64,000 nucleotides of DNA from an uncultured bacterium (GCA_963837395.1 CAWINI010000004.1:2699484-2763483); one strand, 5' to 3'. Positions 1 through 59,724 are shown, counted from the first letter of the stretch. The notes: generated by a model from the letters alone, not told the origin. Translations and numbers: made by a program.

Positions 1-210
1 CAGATTTAGCCGGTCAAATTCCTTAAGAGTCATATCTCGATCTGACTGGCGTTGGGGAAAAATTGGCTCGGGAAGTTTAAGCGGTTCCGCAGCGTCTCCA
101 GTAATGGGAGTTGGCGCTGGTTTCAATAGCATCTCTTGAAGCTGTTGATTAAGCCTGAACCGCGCTGAAGAACCGGCGTTCTCTTGGTTTCGAGGTAGAT
201 TTTCCTGCAT
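1..210 (-). CDS. 5' part of a gene that runs off the window start (hypothetical protein, first ~70 codons)
   Basis: Minus-strand ATG at 210 preceded by GGAGG (218-222, 7-nt spacer); the frame stays open to position 1; no recognisable domain in this fragment. Confidence 0.35.
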   Translation of the reverse strand, partial: MQENLPRNQENAGSSARFRLNQQLQEMLLKPAPTPITGDAAEPLKLPEPIFPQRQSDRDMTLKEFDRLNL

Positions 211-339
211 GATGCATCCTCCGAGAATTGAAGTCAGTTGAATACTATGTTTTATAGCTCTTAATATGAATTAGAGGACTTATGAAAGTCATACCGTTAA
301 GATTATGTTAAGAACTAATGATAATTCTTTGTTTAATTA

Positions 340-1371
340 TTACCAGAGCTTTTTACGAGGCTCTTCTCCCAATCGTTTTGAGACTATAACCGATTGCTCA
401 TATAACTCATCTGCTTTCTGAATATCACCCCGATTATATGCAGCAATCGAAAGATTATACAACGCAAGTGCCTCGCGTGAACCATCCCCGATTTCTCGTG
501 CAAGGGACAGCGATTCTTCCCAATACGGAACAGCCTGTGGTTCGCGGCCTGACGAACTAAATAAGAAGCCGAGGTTTATTAAGGCATTGGCTTGATCTGC
601 CTTATCTCCGGTTTGGCGCGCAATATCTAAGGCTTCTGCGTATTTCTTTTCTGCTTCGGAACGGTTGCCTGCTCCCATTAATGCATATGCCTGGCGAAGA
701 AGATCACCACTTTGGTGCGGCTTTTGTATTGGAGTATCTTCTTTTATCTCTTCAGATTTTACGTCTGGTGCAACTTTTTCTCCTTCCGCCAGCGCCACTG
801 AAATTTCCTTCATCGCACCTGTTTGAATTTCAAATCCTTTGGTCTGGCTTCGATATCCTTGCAGCTGAATTTGCAGCAGATGCTTGCCGTTTAAGATGGA
901 TACATTTTCAAGATTCGTAACACCAAGCTCACGGCCATCCAGCCGAACCGTTGCGCCGGTTGGTGTGGAACGCACAGTTAGCATCGCAAGGCTTCCACGC
1001 TTTTCAGATTCAAACAACTTGATAATTTTTTGCGAAACCAAATCTTCATTTATTTTGTAATCAGGATTCCACTCGATCAGCTTGCGAAATGCAGACTGCG
1101 CTTTCGCTTGTTCGTTGCGATTAAATTCAGCTTGACCTAACAAATCGTAACTTTTTTCAATGATCGATTGTTCATCTTTTATCAAAGTTCGTTGCTTGGA
1201 TTCATTTTCAATCGATTGTATTAATCTTTCTAACATTGGTATAGATTGGTCTTGCTGTCTTGATTCAAACTTCTGCTGTGCTTCCGAAAATCGATCGTTC
1301 CAATCTTTAGATTGTGCATGAACCACAATCGCTGCGAATAAAAATAAAGCTGCAAGCCGAAATCGATTCAC
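340..1371 (-). CDS. secreted TPR-repeat protein with a central PEGA domain
   Basis: N-terminal signal peptide (MNRFRLAALFLFAAIVVHAQ); PEGA-like beta domain (LTVRSTPTGATVRLDGRELGVTN...GYRSQTKGFEIQ); TPR-like C-terminal repeats (LGFLFSSSGREPQAVPYWEESLSLAREIGD...ALYNLSIAAYNRGD); 2-nt gap to the downstream kinase gene. Confidence 0.7.
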   Translation of the reverse strand: MNRFRLAALFLFAAIVVHAQSKDWNDRFSEAQQKFESRQQDQSIPMLERLIQSIENESKQRTLIKDEQSIIEKSYDLLGQAEFNRNEQAKAQSAFRKLIEWNPDYKINEDLVSQKIIKLFESEKRGSLAMLTVRSTPTGATVRLDGRELGVTNLENVSILNGKHLLQIQLQGYRSQTKGFEIQTGAMKEISVALAEGEKVAPDVKSEEIKEDTPIQKPHQSGDLLRQAYALMGAGNRSEAEKKYAEALDIARQTGDKADQANALINLGFLFSSSGREPQAVPYWEESLSLAREIGDGSREALALYNLSIAAYNRGDIQKADELYEQSVIVSKRLGEEPRKKLW

Positions 1372-1373
1372 AA

Positions 1374-4229
1374 TTATTCCTCGAATAGTTGCGCTGAATT
1401 GTCTTCAATAATGGCGTGTAATGATTTTTCGGTTCCAGCTGAAAAATTAATCCTGGCAGTTTTTTCTCTTCCTAACTTTTCCCAGAACACTCGAATCTGT
1501 TTTACTCCTGCTTGAACTGGATACTTGAAAATTGGCGCGGTATCGATCTGTTCTCCTTCAACAAATAGTGTGCAATTACTGGGTTGTGCCGTTAATGTTA
1601 ATTGAGCCATCGGCGGAACCTTTATAATGGTCGATTCACCAGTCTTAATTTCGACACGTTCAGTTTGACGGATATAAGCTTCTTGAATCGAATTGCTAAC
1701 GATCATCACCTGGTAGCTTCCAGGTTTTAAACTCGATGAATCTTTTTCATCGGAGTTGAACAGAAGTGTTTTGTTTAGAAAAACTGAAATCGCAAAGTCT
1801 CCTTGATAAACCAGAGTACCTGGTTTTGCAGGAATCGCAGTTAGATCGAGCGCCGGTAAGTCTGATGTTTCTTCATTGATGATGAAAGTTGCAGGCTGAT
1901 AGTCTGCCATCTTCAATTCAAGTTGATGCGTTTGTCCGGCATGCAATTCCAAATCTGCCGGAGTTTTTAATCCTGTATCTTGTTGATCAATAAAAATAGA
2001 AGCACCATCAGGATTACTGCGAACAGTGAAATGTCGCAGCTCAGGCTGCTGCACAACTGTGTCCTGGGTCTGCAAATTTGAATTTGGTGCATCACTTTCA
2101 AACGAAGAATTTGGTGGCGGATCCGCAATTATTTGAGTTTGTGCCGGAGAAGTCTGTGCAGGGGATTGATTTTTATTTGTTGGAATTTGCTGTTGAACAA
2201 TTAACGGCGGTTGTTTATAGATCAGAAAATAATATGTGGCTGCAGCTCCGCCTAGAATCAAAAAAAATAAAGCCGCAATCCAACCTGCATAGCTTTTTGA
2301 TTCAGGTTCAACATACTCCTCAATATGTTCATCTTCAGCCGAAACCGGTACGTACATTGGTGCGGTTGGAGCAGGACGGATCGGTTGATCAAACGCAGAA
2401 AGAAATTCTTGCGTGTTCTGAAAACGTTTTGATGGATCTTTTTCCAGTGCTCTCAAAATGATTGACTCCAGTTGCGGACCAACGTGACAAAATTGCGATG
2501 GCCGCGGCGGAGGAGTATGCAGATGCGCATACATCATGCTGGCCGGAGTCCTGGCATCAAATGGAGCGCGTCCGGTCACCATTTCATAAAGAATGATTCC
2601 GGCTGAATACAAGTCGGCTCTGTGATCCGAACCTTGTTCCTTGAATTGTTCCGGTGCCATATAACGCGGAGTGCCTACCATCATTCCGGTTTGAGTTAAG
2701 TGTCCTGCTTCAGCAGAAAACGAAATGCCGAAATCCATCATCATTGCACGTCCGGTTCGATCGATCATGATGTTTTGCGGTTTCAAATCTCGATGAATGA
2801 TTCCTTGACTGTGCGCTGCACCCAGCGCATTTAATACCTGCCGCATAATTTCAATTGTTTGTTGTTCAGGCAGCGACCCCTGGAGATGAAGTATTTCGGA
2901 AAGCGTTTGCCCTTCGACGAATTCCATGGACACATAATGAACGCCGCCGGCTTCACCGATATCATATAGACGGCAAACATTTGGATGCGCGACTTTACGC
3001 GCCAAAATTACTTCCCGTTTCAAACGATTTAGATTCGTTTCATTACTGACCAGTTCGCGGTTCAAGGTTTTGATCGCAACTGAAATATCAAGCATTCGAT
3101 CTGTCGCTTTAAATACTGTTCCCATTCCGCCTTCGCCGATGCGTTTCTCAATCAAATACCGGTTCGCAAAAAATGAACCGGGTGTTGGTGAAGCCGGAGC
3201 AGTCCAGGCTGGCGAATGCACGGTTGGTGTCAATGAACTTTCGATCTTATTCAAATGATCAATTACTTCCTTCATTGATGCATGACGATTCTCACGTAAT
3301 TTCGCCATGGCCCTGGCAACGAAGTAATCCAATTCCGGTGGAAAAGGACCACAATCCGCATGCGATGACAATGGCCGCGCATTCTCATTCAGATGTTTGT
3401 ACATGAAACCCTGCGGCGTATTGGATGTAAAAGGCAGCCTTCCGGTCAGCATGTGATACAAAGTGACACCAAGCGAATAGATGTCTGCGCGCTGATCGAT
3501 ATCTTCGTCTTCGCTAAGCTGGCCACAAAGCTCAGGACTTACATATTCCAACTTTCCGATAAACATATTTGTGCGCGTAAATCGTTGAGTTTCTTTTGCT
3601 GTAGGACGCGCAATTCCGAAATCGATAACTTTTGTAGTTTCCACTCCTGATTCTGTTTGTACTAAAAACAAATTGTCTGGTGAAAGATCGCGATGGATAA
3701 TCCCTTTTTGATGTGCTGCCTCAAGCCCCATCGCAGCTTCGCGGATAATTCGTAAGGCATGCTGGATTGGAATATGCTGAATTCTTTGAATCCGTTGCAA
3801 CGCGGTTTCACCCCGCAGAAATTCCAGCACCATAAAAAATTGATTGTTTTCCAATGTACCGAATTCATAAAGTTCAACGAGATTTGGATGGCGAAGTTTC
3901 GCCAAGGTTTTTGCTTCACGAATAAATCGATTCACAAAATCTTGCGTCTCCGCAAGTTGGGTTTGAATCAGTTTAATGGCTCGTTGTTCATCTAAATAGA
4001 TGTGGCGCGCTCGATAGACCGCTCCCATTCCACCGCGGCCGATCCTTTCGAGAATTTCGTATTCACGAATACGCGTGCCAATCCACTGATCAGTAGGGGA
4101 CTCCACAATTAGCTCCTGATTGAGGCTATTATATTGCACGAAATGAAAGTTCTCCTCCTTATCAAGGGGGAGATGAAGAGGGGGTTGGAATATTTTCAAT
4201 TTCCAACCACCCCTTGCCCCCTCCTTCAT
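1374..4229 (-). CDS. transmembrane Ser/Thr protein kinase with two tandem catalytic domains and C-terminal PEGA domains
   Basis: Domain 1: GRGGMGAVY, AIK, HRDLSPDN, DFGIAR, SPE. Domain 2: GEGGMGTVF, VAIKTL, HRDLKPQN, DFG, APE. All catalytic motifs intact. One TM helix (WIAALFFLILGGAAATYYFLIY), an S/T/P/Q linker and two PEGA-like domains. The long N-terminal extension of this ORF is the reverse translation of intergenic hairpins; a likelier start is GTG at 4106 with upstream CAGGAG. Confidence 0.85.
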   Translation of the reverse strand: MKEGARGGWKLKIFQPPLHLPLDKEENFHFVQYNSLNQELIVESPTDQWIGTRIREYEILERIGRGGMGAVYRARHIYLDEQRAIKLIQTQLAETQDFVNRFIREAKTLAKLRHPNLVELYEFGTLENNQFFMVLEFLRGETALQRIQRIQHIPIQHALRIIREAAMGLEAAHQKGIIHRDLSPDNLFLVQTESGVETTKVIDFGIARPTAKETQRFTRTNMFIGKLEYVSPELCGQLSEDEDIDQRADIYSLGVTLYHMLTGRLPFTSNTPQGFMYKHLNENARPLSSHADCGPFPPELDYFVARAMAKLRENRHASMKEVIDHLNKIESSLTPTVHSPAWTAPASPTPGSFFANRYLIEKRIGEGGMGTVFKATDRMLDISVAIKTLNRELVSNETNLNRLKREVILARKVAHPNVCRLYDIGEAGGVHYVSMEFVEGQTLSEILHLQGSLPEQQTIEIMRQVLNALGAAHSQGIIHRDLKPQNIMIDRTGRAMMMDFGISFSAEAGHLTQTGMMVGTPRYMAPEQFKEQGSDHRADLYSAGIILYEMVTGRAPFDARTPASMMYAHLHTPPPRPSQFCHVGPQLESIILRALEKDPSKRFQNTQEFLSAFDQPIRPAPTAPMYVPVSAEDEHIEEYVEPESKSYAGWIAALFFLILGGAAATYYFLIYKQPPLIVQQQIPTNKNQSPAQTSPAQTQIIADPPPNSSFESDAPNSNLQTQDTVVQQPELRHFTVRSNPDGASIFIDQQDTGLKTPADLELHAGQTHQLELKMADYQPATFIINEETSDLPALDLTAIPAKPGTLVYQGDFAISVFLNKTLLFNSDEKDSSSLKPGSYQVMIVSNSIQEAYIRQTERVEIKTGESTIIKVPPMAQLTLTAQPSNCTLFVEGEQIDTAPIFKYPVQAGVKQIRVFWEKLGREKTARINFSAGTEKSLHAIIEDNSAQLFEE

Positions 4230-13083: not shown

Positions 13084-14625
13084 TTACCAGGCGTCTCCTT
13101 GTTTGTATCTTTCAGCTGGAAGTAAATCAAGCACCTTCTGAAATTCTGCTTTTGTAACATCATCCATAGGCACATTTTTAAGGTGATTGTAAGCCAACCT
13201 CCAGGCTGTAATGTGGTTATTGTCCATCAAGGAAGAATCTGCTTTTCGATCAAGCAAAAACTGAACTGCATCTAAATTGCCTTGTTCCGCTGTATTCATT
13301 AGTGCAGTTCTTCCCTTATTGTCTGCAATGTTTACATTAGCTCCAGCCGAAGTAAGTGTTTTTATATCTTCGACATGGTTTCTATCAGAAGCTTGAATGA
13401 GCGCCGTCTTACCATCCTTATCCTTTAGATCGAGATCTGCACTTTTGATCATTGCATCTTTCGCTGCCACAAAGGCATCAGGTGCTATGAAGTGCGGGGC
13501 ATCAAACAGATCCATAATCGCAGTTTTGCCATTTTTGTCTTGTAGATTTAAGTCTGCACCTTTATCTACCATTGCCTTAACCGATTCACCATCGACTGAC
13601 TTGCTTGCTTCCATCAATGCTGTGCGTCCATCCTTATTCATAATGTCAGGATTTTTGGATCGTTTAATCATCTCTTTTACTGCAGTTGGATCTGCGGGAG
13701 TTCCAGGAAAACCTTTCCGCAATGAAAGCATCAATGCTGTGTCTCCGTTTTTATCTTGCAAGTCGGGATCGCTGCGTCTTGCCAATGCTCTAATCACTTC
13801 TGGATTTCCTTTATCGATGGCTTCCATTAATGCCGTTTTGCCGTTCTCATCCTGCATATCGAAACCGGGATTGTGTCTCAACAATTCTCTTACTGAACGG
13901 CCATCTCCTTTGTTCACTGCTTCCATTAAAGGAGTGCGGCCATGATCATCAGGAATACTTGCATCAGCACCTTTTTGTAGCAAAGTTGTTGCGGCGTTGG
14001 AATGGCCATGTTTAACTGCATTCATCAAAGCAGTATTGCCATTTGCATCAATACTGTCCATGACGTTTGGACGATACTGCAACAGAGTTTCCACACTGTG
14101 ATTCAAACCCAGACTCGCTGCCTGCGACAGGGCTGTCTGACCATTTGAATCCTTTACAGTTACGTCTGCATTAAATCTTTTTACCAATGTTTCCATCGCT
14201 GTTTTATTACCGGACGTGGCCGCAAGCATTAAAGCAGTTTTGCCATTCACATCTTTGGAATTTACATTAGCGCCTTTCTTAAGAAGCTCTTCCATTTTCT
14301 TAGTATCATTTTTGAGAGTTGCATCTCTAAATTGATCATCGACTGTTTTCCCTATGTTTGATGTCGCTGTTGGAATTGCTGCCACATGGGGAGATGACAC
14401 AATCTGCGATTGGCGTGCGAAAGAACTCAACGACTGTTCAGCCATTTTTGCTTGAGCTCCACTCTTGGAAAGATTCGTGGATTTGGAATCTGTATCAGAT
14501 ACAGGAGCTTGTGGACTTGAATCCGTTGGAAGATTCTGATCTGACTGAACCTTTTCGGTATTAATTTCAGAATCCGTTGAGTTGGAAATGTTTTTAGTTC
14601 CGATAGGCGGTGTGGTGATGGACAT
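13084..14625 (-). CDS. ankyrin-repeat protein (about 11 ANK repeats) with an S/T-rich low-complexity N-terminus
   Basis: Repeated G-TALM-A...G......LL..GA..N motifs throughout; no signal peptide. Confidence 0.85.
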   Translation of the reverse strand: MSITTPPIGTKNISNSTDSEINTEKVQSDQNLPTDSSPQAPVSDTDSKSTNLSKSGAQAKMAEQSLSSFARQSQIVSSPHVAAIPTATSNIGKTVDDQFRDATLKNDTKKMEELLKKGANVNSKDVNGKTALMLAATSGNKTAMETLVKRFNADVTVKDSNGQTALSQAASLGLNHSVETLLQYRPNVMDSIDANGNTALMNAVKHGHSNAATTLLQKGADASIPDDHGRTPLMEAVNKGDGRSVRELLRHNPGFDMQDENGKTALMEAIDKGNPEVIRALARRSDPDLQDKNGDTALMLSLRKGFPGTPADPTAVKEMIKRSKNPDIMNKDGRTALMEASKSVDGESVKAMVDKGADLNLQDKNGKTAIMDLFDAPHFIAPDAFVAAKDAMIKSADLDLKDKDGKTALIQASDRNHVEDIKTLTSAGANVNIADNKGRTALMNTAEQGNLDAVQFLLDRKADSSLMDNNHITAWRLAYNHLKNVPMDDVTKAEFQKVLDLLPAERYKQGDAW

Positions 14626-14679: not shown

Positions 14680-14752
14680 TGAGCCTGACGAGATTCGAAC
14701 TCGTGACCTCCTGAATGCCATTCAGGCGCGCTCCCAACTGCGCCACAGGCCC
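14680..14752 (-). tRNA. tRNA-Ala (anticodon GGC)
   Basis: Hand-folded cloverleaf: acceptor GGGCCUG/CAGGCUC, D-stem GCGC/GCGC, anticodon stem CCUGA/UCAGG with loop AUGGCAU (identical to the E. coli tRNA-Ala GGC loop), T-loop UUCGAAU, discriminator A. CCA is not encoded. The acceptor stem shows G2.U71 and G3:C70. Confidence 0.8.
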
Positions 14753-24696: not shown

Positions 24697-24861
24697 CTAT
24701 GTTTACCGTCTTTAGCGACGCTAAAGTGTCGTCTTATTGCTACAAGTATCGCTTGACAAGTGTAATACTTCTTGTGATAGTGTTATTCGATGCGAACCTC
24801 AAATGATTGAGGTTTGTGTCAAAATGGAATTAGTCAACGCATTCAGACAAGGGAGCGGAAA

Positions 24862-26112
24862 ATGACGAAAGCCTGGCTAAAACTTTTGTTTGGCTTTATG
24901 GCTTGCTTTTTCCTCATCAGCTATGGCACCTGCATTGCGCAGACAGAAGGGGATACTCAAACTCAGGGAACTCAGCAGGTGGAACCACAAGCAACTCAAG
25001 AGGAGACTCAGTCGGCGCAGCAACCCAGCACAGAGGCAAGCCCGCAACCAAAATCCGGTGAACTTCCACCTCCGCTTGAAGCGGAAATGGTGGTCGCCGA
25101 ACATTGGTCCAAAAACCCATTTCCACGCACCGTCGCTGCAGGCGCGCGTGTACATATCGTAGAACGTGGCGATACTTTATGGGACTTAGCGCAACGTTAC
25201 TACCAAAATCCATTTTTGTGGCCTCAAATCTGGGACGCAAATAAATATATTCCTAATGCTCATTGGATTTACCCTGGTGATCCGGTGATCATTCCACCAT
25301 TGACTCCGATCAGCGAACAAATGATCGCTCAGGAAGCACAACCTCCTGGACCGGAAGGAGAAGTTCCTGGTGGACCTGGAGGGGGTGCGCCCGGTGAAAA
25401 ACTTTATCCAATTGCACTCGATGTTGATTTATATTGCAGTGGCTTGATTGTCCCTGACACCGGTGGTTGGAGAGTTAAAATCATTGGCAATGAAGAAAAT
25501 AATTACAAAGTCGCACTATCGACTTTTGATATTGTTTATTTGAATCAAGGCGAAGCAGATGGTATCTCGCCCGGAGACGAATTTACAATCCTTCAGCACG
25601 TTCGCAAAATATTTCATCCGATAACTGGCGAATCTCTTGGTGACTATATAGTCCAAACAGGAAGACTCAAAGTTGTAGCAACACAGGAAAAAACTTCCAC
25701 TGCGCAAATTACATACGCCTGTGATGCGACTTTAGTTGGAGATTATTTAGTACCATTTGAGCCCAAAGAAGTTCCAAATCTCACCGATCTTCCTCCAGTA
25801 GATCGTTTCAGTTTGGAAAGGCCGAATCAGAAGGGATACGTCGTATTTGCAAAAGATGATCTCACCTCACTTGGTGATAACAACGAAGTGCAGATCGATG
25901 TTGGAGCTGCTGATGGTATTACAGTTGGAACACGCTTGATTGTTTACAGAAATCAAACTTCAGGCTATGAAAATACCGGTTTTGAACGGGACATTCCAAG
26001 ACGTGTTCTGGGTGAGATGGTAGTATTTTCCGTGCAAGACTCTACAGCTACTGGTCGGATCATACAGATGTACGACTTCGTCATGCAAGGAGATATGGTA
26101 GAGGTACGTTAG
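24862..26112 (+). CDS. secreted LysM-domain protein with two C-terminal beta-rich repeats
   Basis: Signal peptide; Q/T/E-rich linker; LysM (HIVERGDTLWDLAQRYY...PGDPVIIPP); start placed at ATG 24862 (GGGAG-N6-ATG) rather than the ORF-track start at 24814. Confidence 0.8.
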   Translation: MTKAWLKLLFGFMACFFLISYGTCIAQTEGDTQTQGTQQVEPQATQEETQSAQQPSTEASPQPKSGELPPPLEAEMVVAEHWSKNPFPRTVAAGARVHIVERGDTLWDLAQRYYQNPFLWPQIWDANKYIPNAHWIYPGDPVIIPPLTPISEQMIAQEAQPPGPEGEVPGGPGGGAPGEKLYPIALDVDLYCSGLIVPDTGGWRVKIIGNEENNYKVALSTFDIVYLNQGEADGISPGDEFTILQHVRKIFHPITGESLGDYIVQTGRLKVVATQEKTSTAQITYACDATLVGDYLVPFEPKEVPNLTDLPPVDRFSLERPNQKGYVVFAKDDLTSLGDNNEVQIDVGAADGITVGTRLIVYRNQTSGYENTGFERDIPRRVLGEMVVFSVQDSTATGRIIQMYDFVMQGDMVEVR

Positions 26113-26249: not shown

Positions 26250-28353
26250 ATGTCCACGTATGAAAAGCTTGGGGGTTATTTACTCTTCGAGAAACTAAGC
26301 GAGGACAAATTTTCAAATGACTTTCTTGCCGGGCAAATCTCAGGCTCTCAAATTCAGCAGATCTGCATCCTCAAACGTTTTGATCCTGCACTTGCAATAC
26401 TTCCCGATTTTATTCAGAACTTAAATCAAGAATACGAAGCAGTTAAAACTCTTTCTAATCCAAACATCATCAAACCGATATCTTTACTTCAGGATAAAAA
26501 AGAATACGCTGCAGTTTTCGATTTTGTGGAAGGAAAGACGCTACGAACTGTTTTAACAAAGTGCGGACAGGATGGATATCCATTTACCGTAGATCATGCT
26601 CTGCTTGTTGCCAGCCGGTTATGCACAGCCTTGGAATACCTTCATTCCAAGAAATTTAACGATCAGCGTTTGATGCATGGTTATGTTTCACCAGAAACAA
26701 TACTCGTAACTTATGATGGCGAAATTCGCCTTCAATATTTAGGCCTTGCACATGCTTTACTGAAATTTTCCGCAGGGAAAGAAAAATTATTTCACGATTA
26801 CAAAAGTTATCTATCTCCCGAAGTGATTGAAAATGAGAAATGGGGCCGGCCCAGTGATACTTATGGAGCGGGATTGGTTTTATATGAAATGCTCACCGGC
26901 GAAGTGTTAGATCGAACGCTGGATTTGGATGACACAATTGAAAAAGCTTTGATGAATTCAAATTCCGGTGATAAAGAACCCTTGCCTGATGATTTAAAAA
27001 AGCTTTTACGTCAAGCGCTTGCACCCGAAGCTCCATCAAGATTTTCTTCCATTGCTGATATGCGGAAAGCTTTGGATATGTTGTTGTTCTCAAGCGAATT
27101 TTCACCGACTACTTTTAATCTTGCATTTTTTATGCATTCCGTTTTTCGCGAAAATATTGATGAAGAATCAAAGAAAATTGCACTGTACAAGAAGACTGAT
27201 TTTTCAGCACACTTAAAAGAAGAGCCGCTACCTCCGGGGCCGGTTCCTGCAGCTCCAATCAAAAAAACCGTACCAGTTGGTGCAACAGTTGCAACGCAAA
27301 TTGTTACTCAATATGTTCCACAACCAGCTCCAGTCCATCATGTCGAACGCGAGCATCGTGCGCCTGCGCCTATGCATCAGCCAGTTTCAAAACAAGAGAT
27401 GTTTGAAACACCGGAGGAGAAGGAAAAATCAAAAGTTCCACTTCTTGCAGGTGCGTTATTAATTGTCGCTGTAGTCGCAGCAATCATTTACTTCTTTAGT
27501 TTGAAATCTACAAAAATTACAACAGCTCAAATTCCGCAGCAACTTCCGTCGCAAGTATTAACACCAGATCAAATCAAGGCGCAGGAAGCAGAACGAAAAC
27601 ATTTGGAAGAAGAAGCCATCAAAGCTCAAGAAGAAGCGCGGAAAAAAGATGAAGAGTTAAAGGCTTTGCAAGCAAAACTGGATGCACTTGTAAAAGCGCA
27701 ACAAGACCAAGCGAAGAAAAAGGTAGAAGATCTGACTGAAAAGCCGCCGAAGGTAGATCCGGCGGCAATCCGCAAGCTACAACTGGAAGCAAAAAAGTTG
27801 GAAGAAGAAAAGAAGCAGCAACAAGCATTGGCTGAACAAAAGTTAAAAGAGGCTCAATCAACGCCTTCCGCAGTTCAACCGGCTGCAAATGACACTACTG
27901 AGACGCCTGTAAACACGGCTCAGGCGGGTCAAGTTGTTCCAGCTTCAAACAATATTGGTGGTGATCAAAATATTCAACCAGATGAAGTGAAGCCGATTGA
28001 AACAGAGCAGCCACAACCGGAACCTGAACCGGAAAAGCCGGCAGTGGTGGAAGGTCAGGTTGTGGGCACTGGCTCCCGATGTGGTGAAACCGGAAATTGT
28101 AAGTCGAGTCAATCCTGCATATCCACGGATGGCGCAACAAAAGAAAGTAGAAGGAACGGTGATCATCAGCGTATTAATTTCTGAACATGGAGATGTGGCC
28201 GATGTCCGTGTTCTGCGGGAGGCCGGTGGATCCAGCGGTTTGAATGAAGCAGCTATGGCTGCAGTCCGAAAATGGAAGTTTCGTCCCGCCGTCAAAGAAG
28301 GAAAGCGCGTCAAAGTTTGGATGACCTATCCTATCGTTTTTAAACTTCAGTAG
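26250..28353 (+). CDS. pseudokinase-TM-coiled-coil-Pro-rich-TonB_C fusion protein (frameshifted in this assembly at about 28075)
   Basis: N-terminal kinase fold with degenerate motifs (no GxGxxG, HGY in place of HRD, YLG in place of DFG, but ILK, SPE and DxxxxG retained); TM VPLLAGALLIVAVVAAIIYFFSL; K/E coiled coil; QPQPEPEPEKP spacer; the TonB C-terminal domain (VNPAYP...SSGL..AA..AV.KWKF.P) continues in the +1 frame from about 28078 to 28353. Confidence 0.75.
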
Positions 28354-42902: not shown

Positions 42903-45817
42903 ATGACTTTCCAGGATTTAATATTCTCGTTACAACAATTTTGGGCAAAACAAGGTTGTATTATTCAACAACCTTACGATATTGAAGTGGGTGCCGGGAC
43001 AATGCATCCTGAAACATTTCTGCGCGTGCTTGGACGCGATCCTTATAAGGTAGCGTACGTGCAGCCGAGCCGGCGGCCTGCCGACGGCCGTTATGGTGAA
43101 AATCCTAATCGCCTTTATAAACATCATCAATGTCAAGTCATTTTGAAACCCTCACCAAGCGATGTTCAAGATTTGTATCTTGATAGTCTGCGTTCGTTTG
43201 GAATCGATCCTTCGAAACACGATATCCGTTTTGAAGAAGATAATTGGGAATCTCCAACTTTGGGTGCATGGGGAATCGGCTGGCAGGTTCTTTTAGATGG
43301 TTTGGAAATCACGCAGTTCACTTATTTTCAGCAAGCAGGTGGAATCGATCTGTCCCCTGTTTCTGCAGAAATTACTTATGGCCTGGAAAGAATCACCGCG
43401 ATGTTAACTTCAAAAGAAAGTATCTATGACATCGAATGGGTCGAAGGATATACATATGGCCAGGTCCGTCTTGCAGAAGAACAGCAATTCTCAAAATATT
43501 CTTTCGAACTTGCGGATATCGAGTTACATTCTCAATTGCTTTCACAATACGAAGCGGAAGCAAAAAGAATGATTGAAGCAGGACTTTTTCTTGTAGCTTA
43601 CGAATATTGCCTCAAGTGTTCGCATGTTTTTAATGTTTTAGAAGCTCGCGGTGCAATCAGTGTAACTGAAAGAACTGGAATTATTGCACGCATCCGGAAT
43701 TTGGTTTGCCAGGTTGCACAACAGTACACCGGAGGTGCCTTTCAAATGCCTGAGCTTCTTTTCGAAATCGGTTGTGAAGAAATTCCTGCGGAAGATCTAA
43801 TTCGATTACCGGAAGAATTAAAACAATCAGCTCAAAAGTCATTTGAGACAAATCGTATTCAGTATTCCGACGTAAGAGCTTTCGCTACTCCGCGAAGATT
43901 GACTCTGGTGGCGGATCTCCAAGTAATGCAACAGGATCTAAAGGAGCAGCGCACTGGACCCGCTCGCAAAGTTGCTTTTGATGCCGCCGGAAATCCAACT
44001 TCAGCTGGATTAGGCTTTGCAAAAAGTGCCGGACTGCCATTTGAAAAACTCGGCATCAAATCTACCCCCAAGGGTGAATATCTGGTTGCTGAAATTTTGG
44101 TAGCTGGCCGCAAAACCCGGGATGTTCTGATAGAAATAATTCCAGCAATTACCAAAGGACTTTCATTTCGCAAGTTTATGAAATGGGGTTCTGAGGATTT
44201 TTCTTTCGGACGTCCTATTCGAAATTTAGTATTGCTTTTCGATAATGAAATAATTCCGCTTACTATCGCAGGCGTTTCTTCAAGCCGCTTCACGTTCGGT
44301 CATCGTTTCATGGGAAAAAACAAAATAGAAGTTGATAGCTTTGGACAATATAGAAAAACACTTGAAGAAAATGGGGTGATACTTGCGTTTGAAGATCGAT
44401 CAGATCGGATCCAACATCAACTTCATGACCATTCGGTGAAAGCAAATAGTGCATTGCGCGAAGATAAAGAATTATTGGAGATAATGGCGAATGAAGTCGA
44501 ATATCCGGAAGTTCTCACCGGAACATTCCCCGAAGAATTCCTGAAGCTGCCGCAAGAAATTTTGATCAATGCCATGCGGAAACATCAAAAATATTTTTGT
44601 GCTACCGATGCTGCAGGCAATTTACTTCCTGTTTTTTTTACAGTGCTTAATATCCATGCTACAGATCCTGAACTGATCCGAAAAGGACACAAACGTGTGT
44701 TGATGGCGCGGCTGCGTGATGCAGAATTCTTCTGGCGTGAGGATTTGAAATCGGATCTGATTACACTTCAAAATAAGCTGAGCCGTGTTACGTACCACGA
44801 GAAACTCGGTTCGTATACCGAGAAAGTAAGCCGGATGCTAAGAATATCGGATGAAATCATTAAACAGACAAAGCTTGAAGAAATTAGTCCGAAACTTCGA
44901 AAACTGATTCAAATGAGCAAGGCAGATCTGGTGACCTTGATGGTTGGAGAATTTCCTGAGTTGCAAGGAATTATGTCCGGATTGTTTGCCCGCGAAATGA
45001 AATTGCCGGAAGAAGAATGGCAAGCTCTTTATGATCAGTATTTGCCGGCTTCCGCTGAAGGCAGCATGCCTCGAAATCTGTTGGGAGCTTTCTTATCGCT
45101 AATTGATCGGATTGAAATTCTTACATCAGGTTATGTGTTAAACATGATTCCAACTGGTTCTCGCGATCCATATGCTTTGCGCCGTGCAGCTACAGCTGTA
45201 ATCCGAATCCTTTTGGATTTTCGATTAAAAATGGATCTGCGGCCGATCATCGATCAGGTATTCACCCTGTACAATCTCAAAACGAAACTCAGCCGTGATG
45301 AGATGCTGCATGGAGTAATGGAGTTATTGGAAGCGCGATTTAGATTTTTGATGGAACAGCGCGGAATTGCCCACGATTATTTAAATGCAATTTTGACTGT
45401 TGGGTCCGGAATTTTTCTGGATGCATTTAATCGGGCAAATGCACTCTGGTCGAAGAATCAATCTGAAGATTTGAAAACTCTGGCTCGATGCTTTAAAAGG
45501 ATCAATAATATTATTTCCGGCCAGCCTGATCATCAAATTGATCCGGAAAAACTGACTGAGGATGGAGAAAAAAGATTGAATCAGGTGTTTACGGATATGG
45601 AATTCCGGGTCAGTCAGTTAATTCAGGAAGGGCAATATCTCGATGCGCTGGACATTATGGTTACTCTCGGTTCCAGGAGATCGATAATTTTTTTGATGAA
45701 GTGCTGGTGATGGCTGAGGATGAACAATTGCGCAACAATCGCATAGCATTGCTGCAAAAAATCAGTCATTTATATCGTAAAATTGCAGATTTTTCGCAGC
45801 TGCAGATTGAAATGTAA
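42903..45817 (+). CDS. glyQS: fused glycine--tRNA ligase alpha+beta subunits (frameshifted near 45673 in this assembly)
   Basis: N-terminal GlyQ ([19 protein letters not shown]...) fused to GlyS. The C-terminal GlyS tail ([45 protein letters not shown]) lies in the -1 frame beyond the apparent stop at 45710; restoring one C in the CC run at 45673-45674 rejoins the frames. Confidence 0.85.
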
Positions 45818-52552: not shown

Positions 52553-52915
52553 ATGCCGACGCATTTAAAAGGACCATCGATTATTAAGGCAGCCGGAAAC
52601 AAACCGAAAGTGATTGAAGAATTCATTGGACGCGTAAATTCTGGAACTGCCGGTGTTAGCATTGCTCGAATGAAAAATCCGCAAGGATGGATTGAACCTG
52701 GGCAAACACCGGAGTTCGAAGAATTTACAGTGGTTTTGCGCGGAATGCTGAAAGTTCAATCACAATCCGGAACGATTGAAGTTCGCGCAGGTGAGGCGGT
52801 GATTTCACATAAAGGAGAATGGGTTCAATACAGCACACCTGAATCTGATGGCGCTGAGTATATTGCGATTTGCCTTCCAGCGTTTTCTATGGAAACTGTT
52901 CATCGAGACGAATGA
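52553..52915 (+). CDS. small cupin-fold protein
   Basis: About 120 aa beta-rich; AAGGAG RBS 6 nt before ATG 52553 (the ORF-track start at 52532 is less likely); its stop overlaps the next start (ATGA at 52912-52915). Confidence 0.55.
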   Translation: MPTHLKGPSIIKAAGNKPKVIEEFIGRVNSGTAGVSIARMKNPQGWIEPGQTPEFEEFTVVLRGMLKVQSQSGTIEVRAGEAVISHKGEWVQYSTPESDGAEYIAICLPAFSMETVHRDE

Positions 52916-54060
52916 CAAGATCTGAACGACTAATCGACTTCCGTTTCGTTCTGATAGTTTTTTTGATTTCCAGAATTGCTCTTGAAATTGTCGGAATTCT
53001 TTCCGCATTTTATTTTCCGCCGGCTCAAGCCGTATTCAAAATTCGTGATTTGCAATATCACACTCGCCAATCTTTGCCGCAGGAAATGTGGGCGCGTTGG
53101 GATTCTGAATGGTATCTGCTGATTGCAGATCATGGCTACGCTTCCTACGAATATTTTAAGGACGCTGGCGGCGGAAGATATTTACAACAAGACTCTTCAA
53201 AGTTTTTTCCAGCATATCCGATTGCTATTCGCACCTTAACATTCATCACTGGAAACAGTGTGCTCTCAGGCATTCTTATTTCAAATGTTTGTGCGTTGCT
53301 ATTCTTATATTTCTTTCTTCGTCTTGCTTCAAAATTCATGAGCACTGAAAATGCTGTCAATGCTGCAATTTTGTATGTTGTCTTTCCAACAAGTTTGTTT
53401 TTGAGCGCAATTTATGCTGAGGCGATGTTCCTTGCGGCAATTGTTGCTGCGTTTCTTTTCATAGAGGAACGAAAAATTTGGCCCGCCTTGCTTGCCTGTG
53501 CAATTGCAGTTCTTACACGCCCTCAGGGTGCACTTGCGCTTCCGGCGCTTGCATGGCTTGCATGGCAAAAGTTTGAGGCTCGGCGGATCATTGCAACAGC
53601 TGGAATTATTGCTGCTGTTTGTATTCCGCTTGCCGGATATTTGATGTACATCGATAACACTTTCGGATCAATGTCGTGGATTTCACAAAGCCAAACCTAC
53701 TGGCGCGGTGAAATGAAATATCCGTTTTATGCATTTGTACGGTTCTTTCAAAATACGATTGCGATTCATGGTCAACACAATTCGATGATCGATTTCACAT
53801 TTGCTATTGTTCAAATCATTGTGCTGATCTTCTCCTTCCGCAGAATTCCTTTGCCGTACACTTTGTATAGTTTGATTGTCTTATTATTCCCGTTAAGCAG
53901 CTCGCTGTTTTCTTTTTCCAGACTCTGTCTCGCGAATTTTCCCTTCTTTCTTGTATTACCTCCGCTGCTAGGGCGCTGGAATCTGCCTGTTCAAATTTTT
54001 TGCGCAATCATTCTGGCGTTTTTTATGGCAGCGTTTGCGAATTGGTTCTGGGTCGCTTAG
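52912..54060 (+). CDS. polytopic GT-C-type glycosyltransferase (PIG-V / mannosyltransferase-2-like)
   Basis: More than 8 TM helices; WDSEWYLLIADHGY...FFPAYP motif resembling PIG-V (GT76); translationally coupled to the cupin gene. Confidence 0.55.
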   Translation: MTRSERLIDFRFVLIVFLISRIALEIVGILSAFYFPPAQAVFKIRDLQYHTRQSLPQEMWARWDSEWYLLIADHGYASYEYFKDAGGGRYLQQDSSKFFPAYPIAIRTLTFITGNSVLSGILISNVCALLFLYFFLRLASKFMSTENAVNAAILYVVFPTSLFLSAIYAEAMFLAAIVAAFLFIEERKIWPALLACAIAVLTRPQGALALPALAWLAWQKFEARRIIATAGIIAAVCIPLAGYLMYIDNTFGSMSWISQSQTYWRGEMKYPFYAFVRFFQNTIAIHGQHNSMIDFTFAIVQIIVLIFSFRRIPLPYTLYSLIVLLFPLSSSLFSFSRLCLANFPFFLVLPPLLGRWNLPVQIFCAIILAFFMAAFANWFWVA

Positions 54061-55406
54061 TGGGACTCTGTGTCCTTGTGGTTGTTATAAAACGATGACC
54101 TTTTGAAAATAAATCTGTAGGTTATCTCAGACAACCGTTGTGGAACTTCCACAAATTGATTGTGCAACATTTGTGAAACTTTAAAATGACCATCGCGCGG
54201 AATCATCCCTGTTCCAACCTGGATCACCATAAAAAGATTCCAGATGATAAAAAAGATCGAAACTACCGGCACGAGTTTCGATTGCCAATGCGAATAAAGT
54301 GCAGCCAACCCAAATGTAAAAACGATTATGCAGCTAATTAAGTAACGAAGCCCGAATCCAGATCCACCTTGCCAGGTGTCGGCACAAATTACGAAATAAA
54401 ACTGTAAAAGAAACACCAGCACCAGAAGCCAAAGACTTTTTTCAGTTTTTATCAAAGAGAAAAATCCGATAATGCACAAAACGATTACCGGTGTCCAAAG
54501 AAATAAACCATGATAAGTTGAAAAAAGCACAGGAAGAAAATATTTACCGTTCCAAAAAAGTTTACCTTCTAAGTTTCCGGTTGAGTATGGATTGAGTTTA
54601 CCGTTTAGTACCCACCATATGCAGAGCTGAGGAATAAACATCAAAAAGGCAGCAGCAAGGCAAACCAGTTTCAAACGGATTTGTTTGCGATCAAACACCG
54701 GGATTACAAGAAAGAGTGCATCTTGCCATCGCACGATTGCAGCCAAACCACCAACAATGCCGATTAAGAACCATGCGGACACAGAATCTTTGTTACGAAG
54801 TTTGTACCATGTAAACACAAACAAGCTTGTTGTGAAAATGGAAGTTGCATGCGACATCGGTGGAGTAACATACATGTAGTAGACTGCGTGCGCTCCGAAC
54901 CACAGAGTCAGCACAGCCCAAAAAGAGATCCAGGCTGAAAAGAAATCGCGCAGGATTCTGTATTGCAGAAGAAATCCAAGAAAGCCGTAAAGTGCACTCG
55001 CAAAGCAAATCGCAAGCACATATGGAAATGAAAATCCATCTGCCGGATAGTTGTGTGTCGCTTTCACATACAAATCCGCAGCCGCAAAAAATGGTGCCCA
55101 CAAAATCGCACATCCAATCGGCGCATCATTGCGAGCATAGCCAGTGGAATTCAAACGATCGATGAATGCCTTTTTGAAATTCTGTTGTTTTGTTGGAGCG
55201 AGATTGTAAAGGTACTGGTATTCATTTTGAAAATTCAGATCGTGATCTTTCCAAACTGATCGAAGGTATGCGTAATATTGGATTTCATCTCCGCTGTAGA
55301 TTCGCGGGGTGAGAAGAATTAAGGAAACAACAAAGATTAAAACTAAAGCGAGGAAACCGCGTTCTGTAAATAAAAATCCGGCTGGATGGCGTTCCGCCTT
55401 TACCAT
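54057..55406 (-). CDS. GT-C glycosyltransferase of the PMT/ArnT (GT39/GT83) type
   Basis: N-terminal DE-containing loop (YSGDEIQYYAYLRSV), more than 10 TM helices; stop codon overlaps the stop of the convergent gene (TTAG at 54057-54060). Confidence 0.7.
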   Translation of the reverse strand: MVKAERHPAGFLFTERGFLALVLIFVVSLILLTPRIYSGDEIQYYAYLRSVWKDHDLNFQNEYQYLYNLAPTKQQNFKKAFIDRLNSTGYARNDAPIGCAILWAPFFAAADLYVKATHNYPADGFSFPYVLAICFASALYGFLGFLLQYRILRDFFSAWISFWAVLTLWFGAHAVYYMYVTPPMSHATSIFTTSLFVFTWYKLRNKDSVSAWFLIGIVGGLAAIVRWQDALFLVIPVFDRKQIRLKLVCLAAAFLMFIPQLCIWWVLNGKLNPYSTGNLEGKLFWNGKYFLPVLFSTYHGLFLWTPVIVLCIIGFFSLIKTEKSLWLLVLVFLLQFYFVICADTWQGGSGFGLRYLISCIIVFTFGLAALYSHWQSKLVPVVSIFFIIWNLFMVIQVGTGMIPRDGHFKVSQMLHNQFVEVPQRLSEITYRFIFKRSSFYNNHKDTESH

Positions 55407-56899
55407 TTTGTGGAATAAATCAGAACATACTCTTTGCCAAGCAACGGTACTTGATACTCAAGTTTGAACCGTGGATCGTTTGCTAGCAGTTGCTGACGTG
55501 GTTTGGTAACGATATCGGTATTAATCACGATGTAGTCAGGCTTTCGTGTTGAAAGATATTGGATCATCTTTTCATTGATTCCATCGCCTTTTTCGCGATA
55601 TTCCTTGCTTTGCAAATTCAGCCATCCCGAAAAATCTACGAGTTTGCGCTGCGCAAAATATGGAATCACTCCAATTTCTTCAGACGCGAAAGTCGATAAT
55701 GCGGGCGTATTATTTTTCAGCCATAACCCTGCTTCTTTATATGCAGGATAAGCGGTCAACTTTTGATCGCTGCGTGTTTGATCGTAATAGTAAATATTCA
55801 GTAAGAAATAGAAAAAGAAGCAGACCATCACTGTCCCGAACATAAAGAATTGCGACCATTTCGGTGATCTGAAATATTTTTCAGAAACCATTTTCAGGTA
55901 AGTCATTGAAAACAATCCAATGAACGGCAATAGATGAACGTAGTAGCGGCGATTATCAAGAAATGGTCCATAAAAAAACATACAGAAGGTTACCCAGATA
56001 AATAAAAACATGAAACGTGGAAGACGTTCTCGAATTTGTGAAAGTGCCGATATGACTGAAGCTATGATCAATATTGGAAAAAACAGAATCAAGATACCGC
56101 CAAGAAAATGTGGAATTTTCCGGAGCGCCCACGGATTTAATTTTGCACTTCCGGAACTTGGAAGCAGGGTTGAATGCGTTCCAATATAAGCAAACCAGAG
56201 AGCAGGTAAGGCAATCATTACAATTAAACGGACAAACGCGTCTTTCCAACGAAATTCATCATTTCGGTGATCGATATACAAATGATTCAAATACAACAAT
56301 CCCGCAAATAGCGCACCTTCATATCGCGTAAGGATTGCTAACCCAAGAAAGACATAAGTCCAGATTGATTGTGGATGAAACAAATATGTATACAGCGATA
56401 GCAACAGCAGGAATGTGAACAATGTGAAGTCTTGTGGTCCTGCGCTCAGAATCGCTTCGAGCGGAGATGCTGCCCACACTAACGCACTGGTGAAAGCGAT
56501 AAATGGATTCGATGTAATTCGGAAGGCAATCAAAAATAACAATACAGTTGTTGCTAAACTGAATCCAAGATTCACGAACTTCGCTGTAACGAGCGCGCTT
56601 TCTTGAAACAAAAAATGTTGAGCAGCAAGAATGAACGTTAGTAAGGGAGTTGCAGCATGCGAGATTTCGCCTGGATTAAAACTAAAGCCATTGCCTTCAG
56701 CAAGATTTCGAGCATACACATGGAACACGTAAGCGTCATCATAGGTTAAGTAGTAATCTCCAAAAAATAAGAAGTGAATGATGAGTGATAATGCGATTGT
56801 GCCTGTAATGAGCCAGCGGGATTGACTTAGAATCTCTGCTGCGGTTGCTTCCTCTTCTGGATGGAATACTGTTTTCTTAAAAGGAATAATTTCGGTCAT
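55400..56899 (-). CDS. GT-C glycosyltransferase, ArnT / 4-amino-arabinose-transferase-like (PMT_2 family)
   Basis: YDDAYVFHVYARNLAEGNGFSF loop motif typical of the ArnT/PMT_2 family; more than 10 TM helices; overlaps its neighbours by 7 nt and 4 nt. Confidence 0.75.
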   Translation of the reverse strand: MTEIIPFKKTVFHPEEEATAAEILSQSRWLITGTIALSLIIHFLFFGDYYLTYDDAYVFHVYARNLAEGNGFSFNPGEISHAATPLLTFILAAQHFLFQESALVTAKFVNLGFSLATTVLLFLIAFRITSNPFIAFTSALVWAASPLEAILSAGPQDFTLFTFLLLLSLYTYLFHPQSIWTYVFLGLAILTRYEGALFAGLLYLNHLYIDHRNDEFRWKDAFVRLIVMIALPALWFAYIGTHSTLLPSSGSAKLNPWALRKIPHFLGGILILFFPILIIASVISALSQIRERLPRFMFLFIWVTFCMFFYGPFLDNRRYYVHLLPFIGLFSMTYLKMVSEKYFRSPKWSQFFMFGTVMVCFFFYFLLNIYYYDQTRSDQKLTAYPAYKEAGLWLKNNTPALSTFASEEIGVIPYFAQRKLVDFSGWLNLQSKEYREKGDGINEKMIQYLSTRKPDYIVINTDIVTKPRQQLLANDPRFKLEYQVPLLGKEYVLIYSTKW

Positions 56900-58746: not shown

Positions 58747-59724
58747 CTATTTTAACCCGACCAACCAGCCGCCTTCCTGACCGTTAGAACGAATTACGTA
58801 AGTCCCTCTTAGATTTCTACCTTCCATCTTTCCAACAAAATCTACCGCGCGCCCATCTTTTTCAGTCATTGAAAACTCGACTGGGAATGATGATGTCTTT
58901 CGATATTGACCAAAAACTTGAAACATCCCGATCGTTTTTCTGAATTCATTTTTGAATCCGCCGCTTCCACCAAGATCCATTCTCCACACTAATGTAGCTG
59001 TGCCTGATATGGAACTTCCTTGCTGCCGCAGTTTTAGATCCAGATCCAGAGTAGACTCGCGAATGTTGGAATAAAGTTTATTGTCCATTGTTCCGCTCCA
59101 GGTGCCCTCAACTTTTGCTACTCTGGCAGGAAGTCCAAAACTTAATGAAAGCAGTTTCGATTTTTGATCTGCGGGGACAGTATTTAAAAAATCAACGGCG
59201 TAATAACGTCCGCCGCTTTGATCATTTCCAACAGCGTAAAAATTTTCGATCTGTTCGAAAACGAGACCACCTGAAGCTACAATTCCAGTATCTTCAGGAC
59301 TTTTTACTTGAACAAAAGTGCGATAGTACGACCACAACAACATTTGCCACCATTTTGCCAATTCCTCTAATTCAACTCCGCGCTGATTTAATTTGCTGTA
59401 GGCATAAGTATCTTCAGACAAAACTCGCAACAACGGCGATTTCGTACCATCAACTGCTCCATCCGCAAAAAGCGAATAGGCATTATCTTGATTCGAGATT
59501 GTTACCTGGGCATCTGGATTGGATTGAAAATAAGTAACAGCGTTGTTCAGATTTTTCGCAACTATTTCGGCTCGCTCACGACTGCTTCCTGCATCATCTT
59601 TTGCCACCAAAACCAAAAGTGGACCTATGTTTGTTTCAACCGAATATTCATTAAAACCGAGAGGCGTTGCATATGGTTTTGCTACAAACGAAAGTCTGAA
59701 CACTTCCTGCGGGTTTTCAATCAC
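58747..59724 (-). CDS. hypothetical soluble protein, translationally coupled to the upstream 2xFHA gene
   Basis: 325 aa; no TM helix or signal peptide; no recognisable motif; 8-nt overlap with the 59717..61306 gene. Confidence 0.55.
   Translation of the reverse strand: MIENPQEVFRLSFVAKPYATPLGFNEYSVETNIGPLLVLVAKDDAGSSRERAEIVAKNLNNAVTYFQSNPDAQVTISNQDNAYSLFADGAVDGTKSPLLRVLSEDTYAYSKLNQRGVELEELAKWWQMLLWSYYRTFVQVKSPEDTGIVASGGLVFEQIENFYAVGNDQSGGRYYAVDFLNTVPADQKSKLLSLSFGLPARVAKVEGTWSGTMDNKLYSNIRESTLDLDLKLRQQGSSISGTATLVWRMDLGGSGGFKNEFRKTIGMFQVFGQYRKTSSFPVEFSMTEKDGRAVDFVGKMEGRNLRGTYVIRSNGQEGGWLVGLK

Follow-up and report, generated by a model that had tools for sequence, protein, structure and literature searches.

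A two-gene unit of a tandem Ser/Thr kinase receptor and an exported TPR-PEGA protein in an uncultured bacterium, and the large kinase family to which it belongs

Two adjacent genes in a 64,000-nucleotide stretch of DNA from an uncultured bacterium (GCA_963837395.1 CAWINI010000004.1:2699484-2763483; this whole stretch is referred to as the window, and all coordinates are counted in it) encode a membrane receptor with two Ser/Thr kinase domains and a secreted protein built of TPR and PEGA domains, here called the partner. We consider it rather probable that they form a two-gene operon of a single-pass membrane Hanks-type Ser/Thr kinase and an extracytoplasmic accessory co-sensor. The unit is conserved and belongs to a large, unstudied family, and it is not a rare oddity. 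Both genes lie on the minus strand in the list of open reading frames (ORFs), and kinase residues are numbered on the 951-amino-acid (aa) version that starts at the first ATG. The linker given here, as well as the stalk of the receptor and the signal peptide of the partner given further below, were read directly from the sequence. The receptor gene and its kinase part are laid out as follows:

1374-4229, minus strand: tandem-kinase receptor gene, the longest ORF, uninterrupted, 951 aa from the first ATG
3240-4061, minus strand: first kinase domain (KD1), residues 57-330, Hanks-type of the 'Ser/Lys-swap' type (Pfam Pkinase and PknB alignment)
3159-3239, minus strand: inter-kinase linker, Ser/Thr/Pro-rich, residues 331-357
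2364-3158, minus strand: second kinase domain (KD2), residues 358-622, canonical PknB-like (Pfam and PknB alignment)

Pfam Pkinase (PF00069) matched the receptor in two stretches (350.6 bits against a cutoff of 31.7, combined E 7e-105), and KD1 and KD2 each align end to end with structures of M. tuberculosis PknB, with E 1e-45 and E 1e-55 respectively. An earlier note on this DNA had described two complete catalytic domains that both retain GxGxxG, VAIK, HRD, DFG and APE. The core of this description holds in the PknB alignment, where the glycine-rich loop (G-loop), beta3 Lys, alphaC Glu, HRD Asp, catalytic Asn and DFG Asp are present in KD1 (K86, E105, D181, N186 and D203) and in KD2 (K387, E406, D481, N486 and D499), but KD1 departs from it in several motifs. 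KD2 reads GEGGMG, VAIK, HRDLKPQN, DFG and APE with the P+1 loop GTPRYMAPE, whereas KD1 reads GRGGMG, RAIK, HRDLSPDN, DFG and SPE with the P+1 loop GKLEYVSPE. The signature HRDxKxxN with GT is present in KD2 (HRDLKPQN, GT) but not in KD1 (HRDLSPDN, GK), in which the catalytic-loop Lys (PknB K140, PKA K168) is replaced by Ser183 and the P+1-loop Thr (PknB T179, PKA T201) by Lys226. In canonical kinases the catalytic-loop Lys contacts the gamma-phosphate, and in the PKA structure the P+1-loop Thr forms hydrogen bonds with both the catalytic Asp and this Lys. Both domains have the two threonines of the activation loop that correspond to PknB T171 and T173 (T218 and T220 in KD1). An AlphaFold2 (AF2) model of residues 42-650, built from a 54-sequence alignment, gave KD1 and KD2 cores with pLDDT above 90 and a disordered linker (pLDDT below 50 at model residues 294-303).

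To place these substitutions in the family, we used the query and the best 120 homolog clusters of the 7,894 hits obtained with the kinase (n=121 for all family counts below); all of these 120 clusters, formed at 90% identity, span both kinase domains. The core Lys, Glu, Asp, Asn and Asp of KD1 are kept in 118, 116, 113, 113 and 118 of the 121 proteins, and KD1 appears to be under purifying selection. The Thr aligned with PknB T171 is conserved in 100/121 KD1 and 115/121 KD2 domains. The catalytic-loop position of KD1 is Ser in 111/121 and the P+1 position is Lys or Arg in 109/121, and the two go together, as the pair (S,K/R) occurs in 106/121 and (K,T) in only 5/121. Across all kinase domains collected, (K,T/S) was found 293 times, (S/A/C,K/R) 128 times, (S,T) once and (K,K) never; these counts are not phylogenetically independent and describe a coupled, conserved state rather than repeated co-evolution. 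The five (K,T) proteins belong to a separate family of tandem kinases (P0114-P0120), whose members are about 1230 aa in length and contain long TPR regions. In these proteins both domains have the canonical motifs (HRDLKP.N, GT) and share about 50% identity, and this family seems to have arisen by an independent, more recent kinase duplication.

The two kinase domains of the query are not alike. KD1 and KD2 share 35% identity, and query KD1 is 40-93% identical (median 56%) to other KD1s and at most 37% identical to any KD2, with the reverse pattern for KD2. Because of this low identity, and because each kinase domain resembles the corresponding domain of every family member more closely than it does the neighbour in its own tandem, the KD1-KD2 pairing appears to be old and heterotypic and to predate the radiation of the family. 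A recent tandem duplication was ruled out by the 35% identity, and the 'intact duplication' proposed earlier does not fit two domains of distinct types that are each closer to their counterparts. Nor are such receptors rare, as had been supposed: the KD1-linker-KD2 layout occurs in more than 110 independent clusters from JGI, ENA, NCBI and Logan, and the representative library holds many further multi-kinase proteins. Where the source gives names, the members are called 'Acidobacteria/Acidobacteriota' or 'Vicinamibacteria', and it is by such names, attached to relatives, that the family is assigned to Acidobacteriota and that the genome of the window probably belongs there too. A contig scan with the patterns HRDLKPQN and TPRYMAPE, which are generic and unsuited to counting gene-pair conservation, gave mostly single-domain kinases among the matches listed, with tandem kinases only in L006-L008 (Terriglobia/Bryobacteraceae metagenome-assembled genomes, 36%).

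The region past the transmembrane (TM) helix varies among family members and comprises PEGA, long TPR arrays, SPOR, an FGE-sulfatase domain or Sel1 repeats. Therefore, the tandem kinase is a conserved signalling chassis that carries different sensors. An exhaustive search with KD1 alone against 1.84 billion representatives showed that at least 15 representative proteins (329-1256 aa) have a domain of the KD1 type (HRD[ILM]SPDN with GK..SPE) and no other kinase domain, which argues that this type is able to function alone. Many other proteins listed by the same search contain between two and four catalytic loops that can be recognised, and as many as six kinase stretches are matched. Relatives also have additional tandem-kinase paralogs, one of 721 aa in locus L087 (9656-11821) and one of 983 aa in locus L088 (3697-6648; both counted in their own locus), within a few kb of the orthologous pair, and the family has therefore expanded within genomes; the window itself holds one tandem kinase only. 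Databases label the relatives merely 'serine/threonine protein kinase'. In the literature searched there was no match for the HRDxS/GK motif strings and no account of bacterial tandem Hanks kinases of this kind or of PEGA-sensor kinases, and searches on bacterial tandem kinases, PEGA kinases and bacterial pseudokinase families returned nothing relevant, only plant tandem kinases.

The K-E-D-N-D set is intact in both domains in 92 of the 121 proteins, including the query and its close orthologs, so that the single dead domain of a kinase-pseudokinase tandem is seen in some sub-lineages of the family and not in the query. The HRD Asp and catalytic Asn have been lost from KD1 in P0018, P0019, P0020, P0044, P0107, P0112, P0113 and P0119, where the changes are HxN, Asn to Ser or Cys, and beta3 Lys to Thr. 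The alphaC Glu and HRD Asp have been lost from KD2 in P0074, P0076, P0077, P0078, P0082, P0086, P0087, P0088, P0094 and P0104, with catalytic loops that read KGNSD or KGNND in P0074, P0076-78, P0086-88, P0094 and P0104. Since the tandem is kept in both groups of sub-lineages, one domain of the tandem can apparently serve a non-catalytic role. As a separate observation, the window also encodes a 644-aa kinase-fold protein (26250-28184, plus strand) that is a clear membrane-anchored pseudokinase, with no G-loop, a catalytic loop HGYVSPET that has neither Asp nor Asn, and YLG for DFG, followed by one TM helix and a long Lys/Glu-rich coiled-coil tail. The 'SP' remnant of its catalytic loop resembles the KD1 type, and it is preceded by a LysM/FlgT_C protein (24814-26112).

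The partner is encoded directly after the kinase:

340-1371, minus strand: partner gene, 343 aa, GTG start 2 nucleotides (nt) past the kinase stop
1315-1371, minus strand: signal peptide (MNRFRLAALFLFAAIVVHA, followed by QS), residues 1-19, no Cys
985-1314, minus strand: N-terminal helical module with one TPR, residues 20-129 (ortholog alignment; TPR_8 at 73-105)
787-984, minus strand: PEGA domain, residues 130-195 (Pfam, E 3.8e-11, 43.2 bits)
352-714, minus strand: C-terminal TPR array of about three repeats, residues ~220-340 (Pfam TPR_12, TPR_2 and TPR_10)

Its description as a secreted TPR protein with a PEGA domain was borne out by the TPR matches (TPR_12, 67.6 bits, E 1e-18; TPR_2, 54.4 bits in four stretches; TPR_10, TPR_8 and TPR_7), by the PEGA match (E 4e-11) and by the signal-peptide-like N-terminus. 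All full-length partner orthologs shown have hydrophobic N-termini with an AxA-like site, and a lipoprotein was ruled out since the signal peptide has no Cys. In the ortholog alignment the N-terminal module carries the motif DW..F..A(E/Q)..F.SR.Q, and orthologs of 482-825 aa have their PEGA domain in the same place. The TPR array differs in length among orthologs and is far longer in distant ones. One protein in public data (P0121) is 100% identical to the partner.

The linkage between kinase and partner recurs among homologs. A TPR/PEGA gene that shares the N-terminal module of the partner lies directly downstream of the kinase homologs P0005 (81% identity), P0007 (76%), P0009 (62%), P0011 (60% across both kinase domains, 60% of the query), P0015 (45%) and P0019 (42%), and the gene after the 1335-aa P0012 also has the partner N-terminal motif and TPR. 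Counting the window, the adjacency is found in 8/9 contexts examined, down to 42% identity, and the flanking genes of the pair differ completely among the P0005, P0007, P0009, P0011, P0015 and P0019 loci. In addition, a hidden Markov model (HMM) of the partner N-terminal module finds a match at the very C-terminal end of P0032, a tandem kinase of 1492 aa (HMM positions 22-197, E 1.4e-10), and at that of the tandem kinase P0042 (HMM positions 64-197). These fusions constitute a Rosetta-stone link between the kinase ectodomain and the partner. Conservation of the pair amid different flanks, together with the two fusions, upholds the suggestion of a cognate extracytoplasmic partner. Elsewhere in the window, a 529-aa protein with two FHA domains (E 2e-39; 59717-61306, minus strand), a phospho-threonine reader, is the nearest FHA protein, at about 55 kb from the tandem kinase and unlinked to it in relatives; it may serve the Hanks kinases of this genome as a downstream partner.

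Beyond the kinase domains, the receptor contains the following features:

2217-2288, minus strand: TM helix (AGWIAALFFLILGGAAATYYFLIY), residues ~648-671, the sole 19-residue window of the protein to exceed 1.6 on the Kyte-Doolittle scale
2040-2216, minus strand: stalk, low-complexity, Pro/Gln/Thr-rich, putatively extracytoplasmic, residues 672-730
1878-2039, minus strand: ectodomain D1, canonical PEGA, residues ~731-784 (Pfam, hhalign, AF2)
1620-1820, minus strand: ectodomain D2, all-beta domain without family assignment, residues ~804-870 (AF2 pLDDT ~95)
1380-1610, minus strand: ectodomain D3, divergent PEGA-like with a conserved LFEE tail, residues ~874-950 (hhalign, sub-threshold Pfam)

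The single hydrophobic helix agrees with the TM helix noted before, and the stalk that follows it differs in length and sequence among orthologs. The AF2 model of residues 727-951, built with 18 orthologs, has a pLDDT of 94.3 and contains three all-beta domains. D1 is the sole Pfam-supported PEGA domain of the kinase (PF08308, 41.4 bits against a cutoff of 20.8, at 735-781) and matches the partner PEGA with an hhalign probability of 98.2%. D3 is sub-threshold in Pfam (12 bits, E 0.2) but is related to the partner PEGA by hhalign (94.6% probability, E 6e-8), and the partner HMM matches both D1 and D3 in orthologs. D2 has no Pfam match, and profile comparison relates it neither to D1 or D3 nor to the partner PEGA. 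The two C-terminal PEGA domains of the earlier note thus seem essentially to stand, one clear and one probably a divergent PEGA, with a third beta domain between them that it had not seen. D1 seems to be dispensable, because it is absent in P0008, P0017, P0026 and P0057 and replaced by SPOR in P0022. D2-D3 was detected in 27/120 relatives, including members without D1, with the tail (L/I)(F/V)EE, and would constitute the conserved sensor core; a homolog search with D2-D3 returned one near-identical fragment only and is uninformative on the wider spread of this core. Foldseek against the PDB with the ectodomain model retrieved only generic multi-sandwich proteins and, as a weak match over one domain, a chain of 76 aa from the RtkS-PpkA complex 9k1u (TM-score 0.51-0.64 on the target, E 0.06). 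No ligand of a PEGA sensor was identified in the literature searched.

The receptor was compared with known systems. It resembles PknB/PrkC/StkP (M. tuberculosis PknB, PDB 1mru/1o6y) in having an N-terminal, putatively cytoplasmic kinase part, one TM helix and C-terminal extracytoplasmic repeat domains, and KD2 aligns with PknB in every catalytic and activation-loop residue. It differs from PknB-type kinases in having two kinase domains instead of one, Ser for K140 and Lys for T179 in KD1, a PEGA/beta-sandwich sensor rather than PASTA, and a dedicated exported partner gene. The NCBIfam model NF033483 (Stk1/PknB PASTA) scored 599.9 against a cutoff of 450, because two kinase domains add up; its best stretch covers profile positions 2-279 of 563. 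No PASTA domain was found by Pfam in the kinase, and it is not a PASTA kinase.

Among documented systems, the closest parallel is the PpkA system of the threonine-phosphorylation pathway in type VI secretion (T6SS), which likewise combines a membrane Hanks kinase with a signal-peptide protein encoded nearby. In Serratia, the exported protein RtkS binds the periplasmic domain of PpkA and stabilises and activates the kinase, and TagR (TagQRST) plays a similar role in Pseudomonas (PMC6082577). The pair described here shares with that system an exported accessory gene, as judged from its signal peptide, that stays next to the kinase in the 8/9 contexts and is fused in P0032 and P0042; binding of the partner to the kinase is what we infer from this arrangement. 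The pair differs in that no T6SS genes, Fha or PppA lie beside it and in that its partner, a TPR-PEGA protein, bears no sequence relation to RtkS or TagR; PpkA also has a single kinase domain.

Two kinase-fold domains in one polypeptide are also found in plant tandem kinases (WTK1/Yr15, Sr62, Pm57) and in JAK (JH2-JH1). One domain can be a pseudokinase in plant kinase-pseudokinase tandem proteins (PMC6170490, PMC8761531). Likewise, either domain can become a pseudokinase across the present family. The origin is independent, however, both domains here keep the core catalytic residues, and the bacterial protein is a receptor in the membrane whose sensor is extracytoplasmic, whereas those proteins have no such sensor of their own. 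JAKs associate non-covalently with cytokine receptors. A further analogy is offered by WNK kinases, in which the beta3 Lys has moved to the G-loop strand: there, as perhaps in KD1, the canonical Lys is missing from its motif and a Lys stands at a spatially adjacent position, so that a kinase 'dead' by motif may be active. The residue concerned is different, since in KD1 it is the catalytic-loop Lys (HRDxK) and not the beta3 Lys, and the proposed new site is the P+1 loop.

Whether KD1 is a kinase or a regulator was weighed on this evidence. Judging from the retained core, this ortholog probably has two catalytically competent kinase domains, and KD1 may use a relocated lysine, with Lys226 taking over from the catalytic-loop Lys lost to Ser183. 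A fuller proposal would make KD1 an undescribed Hanks catalytic configuration whose Lys has migrated to the P+1 loop (HRDxS...GK for HRDxK...GT), with the 'SK' domain and the canonical 'KT' domain forming an obligate two-kinase relay in Acidobacteriota, one priming or gating the other, under a PEGA/TPR co-receptor complex in the periplasm by which a signal from the envelope is read; we put this forward as a speculative and rather unlikely idea. The main rival, to which we would also give a minor share of belief, regards KD1 as a pseudokinase or allosteric regulator that binds nucleotide or scaffolds and controls KD2, in the manner of JAK JH2 over JH1 or the plant kinase-pseudokinase tandems, with KD2 alone signalling. 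The loss of the catalytic-loop Lys from 116/121 KD1 domains speaks for it, as do the approximately twofold greater number of invariant columns in KD2 than in KD1 (PEGA-type subfamily alignment) and the further decay of KD1 in the eight relatives named above, where the tandem is retained and, at the examined locus P0019, the partner too. On the other hand, K, E, D, N, D and the G-loop glycines are kept in more than 90% of KD1s and the activation-loop Thr in 100/121, which is unexpected for a dead domain, and a basic residue consistently occupies the P+1 position that contacts the missing Lys. The KD1 type is also the only kinase domain of many stand-alone proteins, and in the sub-lineages in which KD2 decays KD1 must carry the activity.

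Two other explanations concern the partner and the reality of the locus. The TPR-PEGA protein might be a substrate, a client or an independent envelope protein that shares the operon, for instance an envelope assembly factor, and we regard this as distinctly improbable. TPR proteins often act as assembly scaffolds, and the array ranges from three repeats to many more among orthologs, which suggests variable clients; an exported protein is, however, beyond the reach of phosphorylation by kinase domains in the cytoplasm, conservation lies in the N-terminal helical-TPR-PEGA module and not in the variable array, related tandem kinases carry that module as a fusion at their extracytoplasmic end, and the adjacency survives full turnover of the flanking genes. 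That the tandem is an assembly or gene-calling artefact, or an anti-phage defence kinase (MADS MAD6-like or BREX PglW-like), hardly deserves credence. The NCBIfam partial matches that point to defence (MAD6, NF047741, 355 bits; PglW, NF033442, 186 bits) fall far short of the respective cutoffs, 460 and 990, and arise solely from the kinase domains; these scores, together with the metabolic context, ruled out a defence-system kinase. Against an artefact stand the uninterrupted ORF and the more than 110 independent clusters with the same layout.

Several observations weigh against the preferred reading of an active two-kinase receptor with a co-sensor. KD1 lacks the very Lys that contacts the gamma-phosphate in canonical kinases, and the argument for compensation by Lys226 is one of covariation only, inflated by shared ancestry. 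The PEGA-type relatives P0018, P0019, P0020 and P0044, at about 42% identity, lost the HRD Asp and catalytic Asn of KD1 and the partner gene is kept at P0019, and KD1 catalysis therefore seems dispensable in some lineages. The AF2 model of KD1-linker-KD2 (pTM 0.51) shows no confident fixed arrangement of the two domains and supports neither view of KD1. The TM flanks are unclear by the positive-inside rule, being acidic on the kinase side with Lys on the far side; P0026 has no recognisable partner downstream; and no substrate, FHA protein or phosphatase (PP2C)/regulator gene is linked to the pair.

The co-sensor receptor would then work as follows. KD1 and KD2 would both be cytoplasmic, and past the TM helix and the flexible stalk the PEGA, unassigned beta and PEGA-like domains, all predicted beta sandwiches, would be periplasmic. 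The partner, presumably exported via its Sec signal peptide as a helical/TPR module, a PEGA domain and a TPR array, would bind the kinase ectodomain, most likely at the D2-D3 core, and may present an envelope-derived ligand or stabilise the kinase, as RtkS and TagR do for PpkA. Its binding could set the oligomeric or activation state of the cytoplasmic kinases and tune their clustering or stability. Ser183 and Lys226 may reshape the phospho-acceptor pocket and give KD1 a substrate preference unlike that of KD2, and KD2, being more conserved, would be the likelier primary autophosphorylating or activating kinase. Intramolecular priming or two-substrate logic, as raised in the earlier note, is possible.

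The gene layout modifies some earlier details. Although the ORF from the first ATG does encode 951 aa, the true start of the kinase is probably GTG 4106, giving a 910-aa product, because AGGAG stands 6 nt before this codon, the closest homologs are 908-912 aa long with all motifs shifted by 41 residues, and the first ATG is only 41 nt from the divergently transcribed SDR gene (4271, plus strand). The 2-nt gap to the TPR-PEGA gene is correct, but that gene lies downstream in transcription and upstream only in plus-strand coordinates. Its Shine-Dalgarno sequence GAGG is inside the last kinase codons, and it is probably translationally coupled to the kinase. A promoter and terminator scan near the genes gave sites no more numerous than in shuffles. 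The neighbours of the pair are metabolic: SDR, M20 peptidase, esterase, spermine synthase and radical SAM. The radical-SAM gene (1-211, minus strand; 423 aa in relatives) follows the partner gene by about 130 nt and does so in close relatives as well; since it is absent in distant ones, it is probably outside the two-gene module.

Other features were seen in the window. A 513-aa protein with many ankyrin repeats (13084-14625, minus strand; Ank_2, E 5e-59), unusual for a free-living bacterium, adjoins a tRNA gene (14680-14752, minus strand). The alpha and beta subunits of glycyl-tRNA synthetase are fused in one 935-aa ORF (42903-45710, plus strand; tRNA-synt_2e with tRNA_synt_2f), and three consecutive ORFs of 396, 449 and 499 aa (52870-56899) have no Pfam match at E 1e-5.

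Most of what is understood about bacterial Hanks kinases comes from the single-domain PASTA kinases of Gram-positives and actinobacteria. Soil Acidobacteriota have many unstudied kinases, and this locus defines a widespread family, with more than 110 clusters, that hard-wires a variant and a canonical kinase domain and is paired with an exported partner. Should the Ser/Lys swap prove to be a functional relocation of the lysine, calls of 'active' versus 'pseudo' from motifs would change in thousands of bacterial sequences. The repeated decay of either domain within one family offers a natural view of tandem kinases becoming kinase-pseudokinase pairs, parallel to JAKs and the plant tandem-kinase immune receptors, and the conserved partner with its fusion variants provides a tractable route to what the PEGA-type sensor recognises.

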